Below, one piece after another: positions 26,593 through 30,590 of a stretch of 42,499 nucleotides of DNA (its first letter is position 1; every line of letters starts with the position of its first letter). Origin of the DNA: a phage. Below the pieces are notes generated by a model. That model ran no database searches, was not told the origin of the DNA, and was given only the letters and a program-made list of their open reading frames with translations. The stretch lies in the sequence record OZ418230.1, one strand, 5' to 3'. The translations under genes were made by a program, and so were the position numbers.

Positions 26593-26725
26593 TTTTTGGG
26601 ACTCCTGGCTGATTAAGTATGTCGATAAGGCGTTTCCATCCGTCACGTAATTTACGGGTGATTCGTTCAAGTAAAGATTCGGAAGGGCAGCCAGCAACAG
26701 GCCACCCTGCAATGGCATATTGCAT
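26561..26725 (-). CDS. cIII: CIII (FtsH inhibitor stabilising CII)
   Basis: Manual translation gives the 54-aa [54 protein letters not shown], lambda CIII; below the track length cutoff. Confidence 0.8.
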   Translation of the reverse strand: MQYAIAGWPVAGCPSESLLERITRKLRDGWKRLIDILNQPGVPKNGSNTYGYPD

Positions 26726-26797
26726 GGTGTGCTCCTTATTTATACATAACGAAAAACGCCTCGAGTGAAGCGTTATTGGTATGCGGTAACGCCGCGC

Positions 26798-27426: not shown

Positions 27427-28008
27427 ATGAACAACTCATGGTGGCAGGAACTAATGCATTTTTTCCTGCAAGGAATGACACTTAAACAGTTGATTCATAT
27501 GCTAATCATCCTGATCATATTGATTATTGTTATGCCTGTAAGCGTAAAAGAATGGATAAACCTGCATAATCCAGAAATCCTTCCTCATTACTGGATGTAT
27601 TACATCCTGTTGTTTTGCGTTAGCTATGTGCTTAACGGCGTTGTTAATTCCGCTTATCACGCTGTGACTGTAAGAATTGAGATATTCGCTGCTCAGAAGC
27701 GCAAATCTAAAGAAGAGAAATACGTGCAAGATTTGTTTGATTCGTTAACTCTTGGAGAAAGAGCGTATTTGGCATTCGCTGTAGCCGCTAATAACCAGCT
27801 AAAGACAGAAAAGGGAAGCCCTGAAGCAATCTCATTGCTCGAAAAAGGGCTTCTTATTCGGGTACCTTCTGCTACTGGATATCCTGAAATCGACCGTTTT
27901 GTTATCCCGGAACGCTATAGAAATGAGTGCTACATTAGGTTTGCTGGGAAGAAAGACAGTCTTATGGATGAACTTATCGCTCAGGATAAGCATGGCAAAA
28001 ACAAGTAA
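27427..28008 (+). CDS. superinfection exclusion protein B-like membrane protein
   Basis: 193 aa, N-terminal TM helices, rightward within the leftward operon next to N; lambda sieB promoter-like sequence (cccctacagcgagaaatcggataaac) upstream; protein diverges from lambda SieB. Confidence 0.6.
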   Translation: MNNSWWQELMHFFLQGMTLKQLIHMLIILIILIIVMPVSVKEWINLHNPEILPHYWMYYILLFCVSYVLNGVVNSAYHAVTVRIEIFAAQKRKSKEEKYVQDLFDSLTLGERAYLAFAVAANNQLKTEKGSPEAISLLEKGLLIRVPSATGYPEIDRFVIPERYRNECYIRFAGKKDSLMDELIAQDKHGKNK

Positions 28009-28024
28009 TTAGCAAATGAATTTA

Positions 28025-28333
28025 TCATCTCGCCGTCAGTTGTTTTGATTTCCGGTAGCCTGCCGCGTAAATAGCTACGTTTGGCAGGCAAACACTTCCA
28101 CTGCATTCATCTACTTTCTTGCAGCGAAGGCTTCCGAGTGATATTGCTTTTTCAGAAAGGCTTAACCGCTTTCTCGGGTCTTCCTGAACAGGTTCCTCAC
28201 TGTCTGTGCCGAAGATCGAATCGATGATGTTGCAGATGGAATCACGCTCGATGGCCAGCTTTCTGCGCCGCTCATGACGGCGAGTTTTGGCATTTCCTGC
28301 AAATGTTGATTTTCCGTACACGATTACCGTCAT
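28025..28333 (-). CDS. N: N-like transcription antiterminator
   Basis: Arg-rich motif (AKTRRHERRRKLAIER) near the N-terminus if started at MTVIVYG (28333); first gene after nutL; alternative start 28417. Not lambda N. Confidence 0.6.
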   Translation of the reverse strand: MTVIVYGKSTFAGNAKTRRHERRRKLAIERDSICNIIDSIFGTDSEEPVQEDPRKRLSLSEKAISLGSLRCKKVDECSGSVCLPNVAIYAAGYRKSKQLTAR

Positions 28334-28450
28334 GATGTTTTCCTCATGTGAAATGGCTTTGGTGGTGATGCGCCAGATGCTGATCTTCTGGTTGCTGTCG
28401 TTACTGCTGCAATTCACATCACCCCAAACCCATCTCGTTTGGTATCTGTT

Positions 28451-28486
28451 CGCGCTTTGTCAGCGCATCATCGAAGTTAAAGAGCC
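28451..28486 (-). promoter_or_regulatory. nutL candidate (boxA-like ggctctttaa plus boxB hairpin gcgc-tgacaaa-gcgc on the minus strand)
   Basis: Same boxA/boxB arrangement and GACAA loop as the nutR candidate after cro. Confidence 0.5.
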
Positions 28487-28740
28487 TGCCAATCTGTTCC
28501 GTTTGGCTGCCAGCGTCCTGCTGATGGCGATTATAATGAACCAATAGTTCGATATTATCAAGAACTATAAGTACGAATTGTTTGTGGTTCATTAACTTAA
28601 TGAGATATGTTTTTGATATGTAAAGGAATTTATTTTTGTAAAGATTGAAGATTGGTCAGTAGGAGAGAAAGAATTGTTTGCTGGCGTGTTAGTTCGTGGG
28701 TTAGCACATGTGCGGATGTTAAATAAGGTAGACGATCGTG

Positions 28741-28770
28741 AGGAAAAGAAAAACCGGCGCTGAGGCCGGG
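28741..28770 (-). terminator. rho-independent terminator ending the cI-side (immunity) transcript
   Basis: On the minus strand, hairpin cccggc-ctcagc-gccggg followed by tttttcttttcc, 5 nt after the stop of the 28776..29675 gene. Confidence 0.6.
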
Positions 28771-28775
28771 TATAA

Positions 28776-29675
28776 TTATTTGATTATTTCTTTTATAAAG
28801 ACTTCTTTCGGTTGGTATTTTTTATCTGATGATTTGAGCTGGTACGTTATTGTTATATCAGCACGTACAGAAAATTTACCTGCAAAATCTGATGGGTTTA
28901 CGTTGGGGCCAAGAACCATATTTACTCTTCGATCTATTAATCCAGGGATAACAGCAGCCCAACCTTTCTCTGGATTGTCGAGGTCTAATGCACGGATTTC
29001 AACATCAACATCAAAATGATCCTGAGTATATGACTCTGGTGTGAAGACAACTTCAGTTGGGGCTTTTTTAATGGTTTCAGCGGGAATGGTCACTGTACCA
29101 CCCCCTGTACCTATGACCATCGTAGATCCTTCGTCTGCCCTAGCTGGGGCAAGCGTCTTAATGGAACTTTTGGCAAGAGTCTTCTTATTGGTTACCGTGC
29201 TTTCTATGATTGCTTGAAGACGGTCAGGTGAAATATTAGCCTCACCGGCACCAATATTGATGATTGTATTGTTATTTGCTTCAAAGTGGGAGGTGTTGCT
29301 TGGAGCCATAGCCTTAGTTGCTAGAACTAAGCCATATCCAACCAGACCAATAACAACAGCACCAACGAGAGCGTTTCTCATTTTCCCATTTCCGATCTTT
29401 GCATGAGCGCCAGCAAGAAACTTGTCCATTTCTTCTTGGCTACCAAAGAGGAGTTTAATAACAATATCTTCATAAAGGCTTCCTGCTTCTAATCGCGCAA
29501 CATGCACCGATATATCAAGGATATTAGCCCCTGTCAGTTCCTGCAAAACACCTTCTGATTGTTTTGCGATGGCCTCCCACCCTTGAAGGGAGGTAATCAC
29601 ATCTTTGATGCTTACAGGTTCTTTAGTTGAATAATATATGTTTTCGGTAAAGGTTAAAGATAATTCTTGGGACAT
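28776..29675 (-). CDS. uncharacterised membrane-anchored protein in the rexAB position
   Basis: 299-aa ORF downstream of cI on the same strand, gagg SD, one predicted TM helix (MRNALVGAVVIGLVGYGLVLATKA), low GC; no family recognised. Confidence 0.7.
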   Translation of the reverse strand: MSQELSLTFTENIYYSTKEPVSIKDVITSLQGWEAIAKQSEGVLQELTGANILDISVHVARLEAGSLYEDIVIKLLFGSQEEMDKFLAGAHAKIGNGKMRNALVGAVVIGLVGYGLVLATKAMAPSNTSHFEANNNTIINIGAGEANISPDRLQAIIESTVTNKKTLAKSSIKTLAPARADEGSTMVIGTGGGTVTIPAETIKKAPTEVVFTPESYTQDHFDVDVEIRALDLDNPEKGWAAVIPGLIDRRVNMVLGPNVNPSDFAGKFSVRADITITYQLKSSDKKYQPKEVFIKEIIK

Positions 29676-29804
29676 CCGAGCCCTCGCTGTTTCTTTCGAT
29701 TTGCTGTGTTAAGCTAATATTTTAATATCCATGTTTCTGTTTGCTTGCAGTGTGTTTCTCACCACCATCCAAACGTACTGGTTACTAGCTATGTGATGAT
29801 GAAG

Positions 29805-30512
29805 TCATGAACTTTTCAGCCATTCCCTGGCCTCGATGTCATCTAGGTGGCGAGATTGCTTCAGAATACCAGCTACATACTCCACCTTTGCTACTTGATG
29901 ATAAGGCAACGTTATTGGCCTGTGGTCTTGGTTGATGCTTGTAAATTGGTATTCTCCGTCTCTGTCATAGCCAAGAACCTTGATCATGTTGTGCCCTTCA
30001 ATGGTTCTGACAAACACCTCATCACCTGGGAATACTTTGGTGTTAGGCTCAATGAGTACATATTCTCCTGATTTTATTCTGGGCCACATGCTGTCTCCTT
30101 TTACACGAAGACCAAAGGCATCTGGATCATCGCTATAAATCTTGAGCCACCCATCGCGCTCTTCGGTCATCTCGATGGCACCATCAACACCAAGAATTGC
30201 CTCACCAACCACGCGCACTAACCCTTTTTTTAATTTGCCAACAATTGAAAAAGTATCTTCATCATTCGCTCCATTTAACGAAGTGCCGTGCTGAAGCCAA
30301 ACAACATCAACGTTTAGAAATTTCGCAAGCGCATTCATTTTTTCCTGGCGTGGTAAAGACTCAGCATTAAACCATTTGCTAACGCCTTTGGACGAAAGAG
30401 AAAGGGCACGGGCTATGGCCATTCCCCTACCATGTTCATCAAGACCAGCTTCTTTACAGGCTTGCGCTAGCCGCTGGGCGAATTCTTTGCGCACTTTTTC
30501 ATTCTGAACCAT
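29805..30512 (-). CDS. cI: CI-type prophage repressor (HTH + S24 LexA-like peptidase domain), non-lambda immunity
   Basis: 235 aa; N-terminal HTH and C-terminal GDSM serine motif; divergently oriented to cro; not lambda or 434 cI. Confidence 0.85.
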   Translation of the reverse strand: MVQNEKVRKEFAQRLAQACKEAGLDEHGRGMAIARALSLSSKGVSKWFNAESLPRQEKMNALAKFLNVDVVWLQHGTSLNGANDEDTFSIVGKLKKGLVRVVGEAILGVDGAIEMTEERDGWLKIYSDDPDAFGLRVKGDSMWPRIKSGEYVLIEPNTKVFPGDEVFVRTIEGHNMIKVLGYDRDGEYQFTSINQDHRPITLPYHQVAKVEYVAGILKQSRHLDDIEAREWLKSS

Positions 30513-30590
30513 GAGTACGATACTAAAGCACTTGCAAAAACTTTCAGTTCAACCATAATGCGTACTGAAAGTACGAAAAAGGACATTCCT
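30513..30590. promoter_or_regulatory. oR/pRM/pR divergent promoter-operator region
   Basis: 78-bp gap between divergent cI and cro; contains inverted ctttcag/ctgaaag and repeated gtacga elements. Confidence 0.6.

Follow-up and report, generated by a model that had tools for sequence, protein, structure and literature searches.

The phage sequence OZ418230.1 (42,499 nucleotides, called the window in the following) carries an open reading frame (ORF) for a protein of 299 amino acids directly behind its cI repressor gene. Its placement, conservation and predicted structure give good support to the conclusion that this ORF is a dispensable, single-gene cargo which is expressed in the lysogen and encodes a bitopic inner-membrane protein. 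A function against other phages is plausible. Among the functions considered we favour superinfection exclusion at the inner membrane with a block at genome entry, to which we assign a probability of about 0.4. The gene is best explained as a promoterless gene-plus-terminator cargo in the pM/pRM operon of a 933W-immunity lambdoid phage. In the lysogen, the CI transcript would read through a spacer of 129 nt, the 299-aa protein would be translated and transcription would stop at the terminator tM. All lysogens would thus produce the protein, and induction would shut off its synthesis. It would insert into the inner membrane by one signal-anchor helix, with its N-terminal domain facing the cytoplasm and a juxtamembrane motif, a small helical region and an OB-like barrel facing the periplasm, and it would protect the lysogen by interfering with the entry of superinfecting genomes at the inner membrane. 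The features of the region are as follows.

28776..29675 (minus strand): coding sequence of the 299-aa protein including the stop codon, ATG start, member of PHROG 4506
29681..29685 (minus strand): ribosome-binding site GAGGG, 5-6 nt before the ATG, read from the sequence
29676..29804 (minus strand): spacer of 129 nt between cI and the ORF, without terminator, promoter-like site or significant RNA structure
28744..28769 (minus strand): intrinsic terminator with a 5-bp GC stem, a 6-nt loop and a T-run, homologue of tM of 933W
28742..29737 (minus strand): mobile cassette, delimited by DNA homology with copies behind unrelated repressors
29805..30512 (minus strand): cI repressor of the 933W type, 235 aa, with HTH_3 and Peptidase_S24 domains, first gene of the presumed pM transcript
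30505..30575: operators oR3, oR2 and oR1 with pM/pR, mapped onto the window from the curated annotation of 933W
28538..28573: oL, left end of the immunity region, with two operator sites, GAACCAATAGTTC and GAACTATAAGTAC, matching the oR sites
28561..28533 (minus strand): pL-like promoter adjoining oL

The gene and its family

An initial annotation of the window had given the coordinates of the ORF and its gap to the same-strand cI exactly, and the ribosome-binding site it proposed was recovered as the GAGGG listed above. The 299-aa ORF is certainly a real gene under strong purifying selection, because ratios of nonsynonymous to synonymous substitutions (dN/dS) of 0.02-0.10 were obtained against diverged copies (81-96% DNA and 94-97% protein identity, dS up to 1.85), and because an exhaustive profile search retrieved 662 cluster representatives of its family at 50% identity. 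The PHROG 4506 profile matches the protein end to end (residues 1-299 to profile positions 1-300 of 300, E-value 1e-170) and carries no function annotation. Most of the 150 best matches are near 300 aa long, with a minority of shorter ones. Full-length relatives in phages of Pseudomonas and Leptolyngbya were confirmed by hhalign, and the family occurs in phages of enterobacteria, plant pathogens, environmental Betaproteobacteria, Pseudomonas and cyanobacteria.

Searches for relatives of known function remained negative. Pfam and NCBIfam scans of the protein gave nothing above threshold; a weak match to DUF1206 covers only the transmembrane (TM) segment and was discarded. PADLOC-DB 2.0.0 (library of 2023) returned none of its defence families at E-values up to 1, and a profile search of the PDB sequences found nothing below an E-value of 0.28. 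Foldseek with the AlphaFold2 (AF2) model gave no match in the PDB at an E-value of 0.001 or lower and only uncharacterised proteins in BFVD. A profile search with the N-terminal domain alone recovered nothing beyond fragments of family members, without any new architecture, and tblastn against 50,697 phage records (E-value 1e-5) gave no match outside the family of the protein. Neither the accessions nor the PHROG identifier nor the motif was mentioned in the papers searched. The protein had first been described as unrecognised and without a family. This holds for Pfam, NCBIfam and PADLOC and with regard to known functions and structural relatives, including known defence homologues as covered by PADLOC; as PHROG 4506, the family is nevertheless large and catalogued.

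Local signals were inspected in the same way. The proposed hairpin and T-run behind the gene are present (stem CCGGC, loop CTCAGC, stem GCCGG, then TTTTTCTTTT; 28769..28754), with the hairpin starting 6 nt past the stop codon and not 5 nt. Such an own terminator is expected of a moron, an additional gene of a phage genome as understood by Juhala and Hendrix, a promoter of its own likewise; no promoter-like site was found in the 129-nt spacer. With 41.2% the GC content of the ORF is below that of cI (45.3%), N (48.9%) and the whole window (50.6%), as described before; a divergent base composition would fit a moron, yet the difference is only modest, and sieB (40.0%) and cro (42.5%) are similar. 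The RNA structure of the spacer is not significant (z -0.43) and an Rfam scan of the spacer gave no match; an RNA element or terminator inside it was considered and dropped, as none was found there. Positions 29688-29709 and 29732-29753 of the spacer form a pair of imperfect direct repeats (22 nt each, 73% identical, 44 bp apart) of no evident function, in an RNA that is not unusually structured.

Position in the immunity region

The window represents a lambdoid phage, and the region described here is identical to Escherichia phage 1H12 and the Lambda_ev phages (Jouyvirus), in which the gene is annotated as gp50, "hypothetical protein". The cI, oR and cro sequences share 97% DNA identity with 933W and the Stx phages. 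The operators transferred from 933W lie at 30505-30519 (oR3), 30537-30551 (oR2) and 30561-30575 (oR1), with a pR-like site at 30532-30559. No exact second copy of the oR1 palindrome occurs in the window; oL was instead located via its half-site repeats (GAAC/GTAC N5 GTTC/GTAC, as in oR) at 28538-28550 and 28561-28573. Since these oR-type half-sites recur beside a pL-like promoter, the gene is located inside the immunity region, between oL and cI. In lambda, the interval between cI and N is filled by rexA and rexB, and the slot of the 299-aa gene is equivalent to it. This part of the initial annotation was borne out: the ORF is placed downstream of cI behind a spacer without terminator, and ends at a tM homologue. 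When the interval between N and the ORF was aligned with 933W, the oL/pL region was homologous and the hairpin behind the ORF proved to be the annotated tM of 933W, described there as "putative terminator for pM transcript". The terminator is consequently not private to this gene. The simplest reading of the layout is a transcript running from pM through cI and the 299-aa ORF to tM, on which both genes would be co-transcribed.

Alternative cargoes behind the same repressor

Homology of the window with the Stx phages ends at 29777, 28 bp past the cI stop codon, and picks up again at the terminator. In E. coli prophages, at least four alternative cargoes were found behind the same cI, this gene counted among them.

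Cargo 1: the single 299-aa gene
Cargo 2: the stk cassette of 933W, consisting of DUF3024, a RuvC-like protein, the stk kinase and a 54-aa ORF
Cargo 3: a 180-aa protein and a DUF1828 protein (locus L069, 2123-3429)
Cargo 4: a 106-aa and a 227-aa protein (locus L070, 2379-3382)

The 933W-type cI was detected in 427 of 5426 complete E. coli genomes (coverage of at least 80%), the 299-aa gene in 150 of the 5426 (about 3%), always at least 99% identical and always termed hypothetical (WP_000076840.1). One of these copies is split by IS1 (IS1B; E. coli EECO1006, NZ_CP090319.1). The gene is dispensable to host and prophage, because this copy is interrupted and because phages with the same cI bear unrelated cargo in its place. 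Presence in some and absence from close relatives is again what is seen for morons, here with same-cI Stx phages and prophages bearing other cargo. The two protein pairs of cargoes 3 and 4 are candidates for lysogen-expressed modules as well. Outside this slot, a prophage of E. coli A1_136 that is collinear elsewhere has lost ren and the nin region behind P to an inverse-autotransporter gene (locus L006, 8354-9064), which is another cargo insertion.

Recurrent placement behind unrelated repressors

The genomic surroundings of the family were surveyed in 59 loci (49 of 50 IMG/VR loci plus genome and phage records), which represent about 47 distinct contexts. A repressor-like ORF on the same strand was found at most 700 bp upstream in 28 of the 47 contexts, 22 of these repressors with an S24 domain. 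Among 29 immediate neighbours analysed with Pfam, 15 carried S24 and 16 HTH_3 domains. The repressors in front of the gene are only about 14% identical on average. The same position was observed in Pectobacterium, in Citrobacter and in the Pseudomonas phages D14C, U7 and U9; in D14C and U9 the gene is separated from cI by a 157-aa ORF of no assigned role. Of the roughly 40-60 genes of a temperate phage, a single one codes for the lysogeny repressor. A post-repressor rate of 60% behind unrelated repressors is therefore far above chance, and the recurrence of this position points to selection for expression in the lysogen. Lysogen expression, as initially proposed, is thus strongly suggested, as an argument from gene position. 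No conserved partner gene was detected among the contexts, where up- and downstream neighbours share no family except the repressors; the idea of a conserved partner was dropped, and the description of a single-component module stands.

Other positions were found as well. Five copies lie on the opposite strand between the antiterminator Q and the holin gene, an interval that is a classic moron slot; copies in this slot must have another upstream region. Further copies follow a P4-like primase or an Rz-like gene or belong to Mu-like phages of Accumulibacter and Leptolyngbya. In two IMG/VR loci (L061, 2917-5903; L067, 4121-5903) the family member comes last in a row of three genes on one strand. 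The first of them encodes an HSDR_N nuclease-like protein of 385 aa and the second, immediately before the family member, a Hypoth_Ymh/HEPN protein that matches PD-Lambda-3_B; the trio could be a small defence cluster.

Comparison of closely related copies showed what moves. Copies with 94-97% protein identity follow repressors which are only 19-31% identical to the cI of the window (loci L028-L031). DNA homology to these copies is confined to a stretch that begins 36-62 bp before the ATG and takes in the ORF and its terminator (about 29737 to 28742). Because homology spans no more than this stretch, the mobile unit is a promoterless gene together with its terminator. A near-identical terminator sequence follows homologues of 52-59% identity in Citrobacter and Serratia, and terminators are present after the gene in most enterobacterial and Pseudomonas copies, moving with it. 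The stk cassette of 933W (locus L012, 1916-1937) and the cassette of the window both end in the hairpin CCGGCCTCAGCGCCGG with its T-run; the same terminator accompanies the 299-aa gene into unrelated immunity regions and was also found after the gene in loci L011 and L015. The tM-type hairpin may mark a boundary at which cargoes are exchanged by recombination.

Predicted protein architecture

Protein structure was modelled with AF2 from an alignment of 35 sequences (predicted local distance difference test, pLDDT, 82.8; predicted template modelling score, pTM, 0.68). The following elements were assigned, with the corresponding DNA coordinates.

29391..29675 (minus strand): residues 1-95, N-terminal alpha/beta domain (beta-alpha-beta-beta-alpha) with an invariant GSL motif, predicted cytoplasmic
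29307..29375 (minus strand): residues 101-123, TM helix of the AF2 model, the only hydrophobic segment
29238..29279 (minus strand): residues 133-146, juxtamembrane motif ANNNTIINIGAGE, the most conserved element of the family
28779..29033 (minus strand): residues 215-299, five-stranded OB-like beta-barrel with an IRAxDLD...GW motif, predicted periplasmic (strands of the model at 215-297)

The single hydrophobic helix noted before was confirmed, as Kyte-Doolittle values exceed 1.6 only in windows that start at residues 99-107. Four short helices occupy residues 150-204. With 90% identity and an entropy of 0.35 bits, the juxtamembrane motif shows by far the highest conservation, and residues 120-132, 183-214 and 281-290 are the most variable stretches. 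The Pseudomonas homologues of D14C and U9 (loci L002 and L003, 5001-5915) keep the full architecture, with the motif degenerate as SASNSVVMVAGQN. Averaged over 35 homologues, 3.6 lysine or arginine residues are present in the 15 residues before the TM helix versus 0.94 in the 15 residues after it, and a topology with the N-terminus inside and the C-terminus outside is predicted by the positive-inside rule. The model accordingly describes a putative bitopic inner-membrane protein with a cytoplasmic alpha/beta domain of 95 aa and about 175 aa in the periplasm.

Proposed function and alternatives

The phage parts met in the periplasm are mainly those of entry, namely the tail tip, tape measure or ejection proteins and DNA in transit, while lysis proteins appear late. 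As most of the protein and its invariant motif are predicted to be periplasmic, we favour a block at the entry stage, a mechanism which we infer from this predicted location. For the superinfection-protection module proposed in the initial annotation, the slot, the lysogen expression and the single component are supported; a homology to known defence proteins was not found in the PADLOC search. Several points weigh against a block at entry. An arms-race sensor is not usually under such very strong purifying selection, and conservation from enterobacteria to cyanobacteria would be unusual for a protein recognising fast-evolving phage parts. The conserved cytoplasmic domain of 95 aa would be superfluous for a purely periplasmic block, and the predicted topology is taken from the positive-inside rule only. 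The supplements of DefensePredictor contain neither accession nor sequence of the gene, which is uninformative, as the strain set may not carry it.

The main alternative, tentative and rather unlikely, is abortive infection by a dormant membrane effector. Infection, sensed through the N-terminal domain or the barrel, would trigger oligomerisation via the glycine-rich TM helix and the juxtamembrane motif and thereby depolarisation or premature lysis, either in the manner of RexB or as a holin-like protein that combines a single TM helix with a large domain in the periplasm. Conserved folded domains on both faces of the membrane would fit signalling across it. The TM helix contains conserved small residues (VGYG, with G115 at least 90% conserved), and the pLDDT of the monomer drops to 67-68 at the invariant motif, as expected of an oligomer interface. 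Broad taxonomic conservation suits a generic effector at the membrane, some copies adjoin lysis genes or HEPN-type defence genes, and the slot is shared with rexAB and the stk cassette of 933W, both of the abortive type (PMC6356687). Cytoplasmic domain, glycine-rich helix and possible oligomer interface suit abortive infection somewhat better than a block of entry. Against it speak the presence of one TM helix only and the lack of a match among the known families of pore-formers, holins and Abi proteins; moreover, a constitutively made pore-former needs tight auto-inhibition, and no conserved partner or antitoxin gene accompanies the family.

A lysogenic-conversion factor of the envelope, unrelated to phages, is an unlikely third explanation. 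It would serve host fitness, such as stress tolerance, envelope signalling, interbacterial competition or colonisation, and would ride the repressor operon merely as a constitutive prophage transcript. The position of the gene indeed speaks for expression in the lysogen only and not for a target, strong purifying selection and a motif invariant across distant hosts suggest a conserved host or self partner, and the 150 E. coli genomes carrying the gene come from varied sources. However, the spread of the family over phages of plant pathogens, Betaproteobacteria, Pseudomonas and cyanobacteria does not indicate a single niche or virulence setting, the gene co-occurs with defence-like genes in two loci, and stk, which occupies the same slot in 933W, has been connected with phage exclusion (PMC6356687).

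A role in the phage's own life cycle, as a membrane sensor tuning repressor stability or induction or as a regulator of lysis timing, is very unlikely: tight, repeated linkage to many types of CI-like repressors, the vicinity of some copies to lysis cassettes and a bitopic architecture resembling that of anti-sigma-type signal transducers speak for it, but the gene is dispensable, being replaced by unrelated cargo in same-cI phages and interrupted by IS1 in one copy, occurs away from repressors (behind the P4-like primase, in the Mu-like phages and in the opposite-strand Q-holin slot) and has no conserved partner gene.

Returning to superinfection exclusion at the inner membrane, a broader version of it can be formulated, which we regard as unlikely at present. 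PHROG 4506 might constitute a new, widespread class of single-protein prophage immunity, in which the periplasmic barrel and the ANNNTIINIGAGE motif would sense or obstruct entry and would be coupled across the membrane to the cytoplasmic alpha/beta domain; as a promoterless cassette it would parasitise the repressor operons of temperate phages which are unrelated and whose hosts range from Enterobacteria to cyanobacteria. If true, one protein would sense infection across the membrane with a combination of folds not seen in solved structures. If the gene is protective, it would add a new single-gene mechanism at the level of the envelope, and promoterless gene-plus-terminator cassettes behind CI-like repressors would provide a rule to search for others. 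Exclusion systems, with rexAB and stk as examples, classically reside in the repressor operon, where most of the cargo is nevertheless unannotated. With about 3% of the complete E. coli genomes carrying the gene, phage susceptibility could be affected in practice. If the gene is not protective, a conserved, lysogen-expressed envelope protein would still be at hand. With 662 clusters, uniform architecture, strong constraint, many unrelated repressors in front of it and no relative of known function, the family is worth testing.

Other features near the gene

A SieB-like superinfection-exclusion gene (193 aa, 27427-28008, plus strand) is located just left of N and is a second candidate exclusion gene of this phage, on the other side of pL. 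An 86-aa ORF (28287-28547, plus strand), antisense to the N leader and nutL and overlapping oL/pL, is possibly spurious; its RefSeq version is a hypothetical protein of 71 aa (WP_000971595.1). The lambda cIII thermoregulator (26680-26738, minus strand, 88.5 bits) is the sole Rfam family above threshold in the whole window.

Comparison with known systems

None of the homology-based searches (Pfam, PADLOC, tblastn) assigned the protein to a known system. Rex of lambda consists of two proteins, of which RexB is polytopic. Like rexAB, the 299-aa gene is a cargo between cI and oL/pL, positioned downstream of cI on the presumed repressor transcript and closed by a terminator, and it would provide a membrane component. 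Unlike the two-gene arrangement of a sensor and a polytopic protein, one gene with one TM helix was found here, and tblastn detected no sequence relation. The stk cassette of 933W sits in precisely this slot, follows a cI of 97% identity and ends at the same tM hairpin, but comprises four genes with a cytoplasmic kinase, whereas the 299-aa protein contains no kinase or other Pfam domain. Stk of 933W was reported to block HK97 (PMC6356687).

Other comparisons concern single membrane proteins and single prophage genes. SieA of P22, Imm of T4, gp15 of HK97 and the lactococcal Sie2009 are small inner-membrane proteins which act on genome entry, and genes of the Sie2009 type also adjoin the repressor in the lysogeny module. 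The 299-aa protein resembles them as a phage- or prophage-encoded, membrane-anchored product of a single gene, with its inner-membrane placement being predicted only, and differs by its larger size, a folded cytoplasmic domain and the 175-aa periplasmic region; no sequence relation to SieA, Imm, gp15 or Sie2009 was found by tblastn. A description of P22 SieA is available (PMC10883804). BstA of Salmonella BTP1 and other prophages is reported as the product of a single gene downstream of the repressor, a protein of about 300 aa which mediates abortive infection and localises to phage DNA replication sites (PMC8585504). The 299-aa gene is likewise a single post-repressor prophage gene of this size. 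By this localisation BstA acts in the cytoplasm, while the 299-aa protein has a predicted TM helix and no PADLOC match; with its localisation to replication sites BstA was rejected as unrelated. SNIPE (PD-lambda-1), which the 299-aa protein resembles as a membrane-anchored product of one gene, is a single-pass inner-membrane protein acting on phage DNA at injection (PMC13190303). Its N-terminus lies outside, its bulk is cytoplasmic, and it carries DUF4041 and a GIY-YIG nuclease, none of which was found in the 299-aa protein by Pfam or PADLOC; opposite topology and nuclease domain led to the rejection of an identity. Tab of JBD26 (83 aa, blocking tail assembly) and GiPD474 (an ATPase) were rejected as well. 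A homology or fold match to holin T combined with placement in the lysis cassette, which would mark a T-type holin of T4, was not found.

With rexAB and the stk cassette, the gene shares no more than its placement and the logic of the operon.

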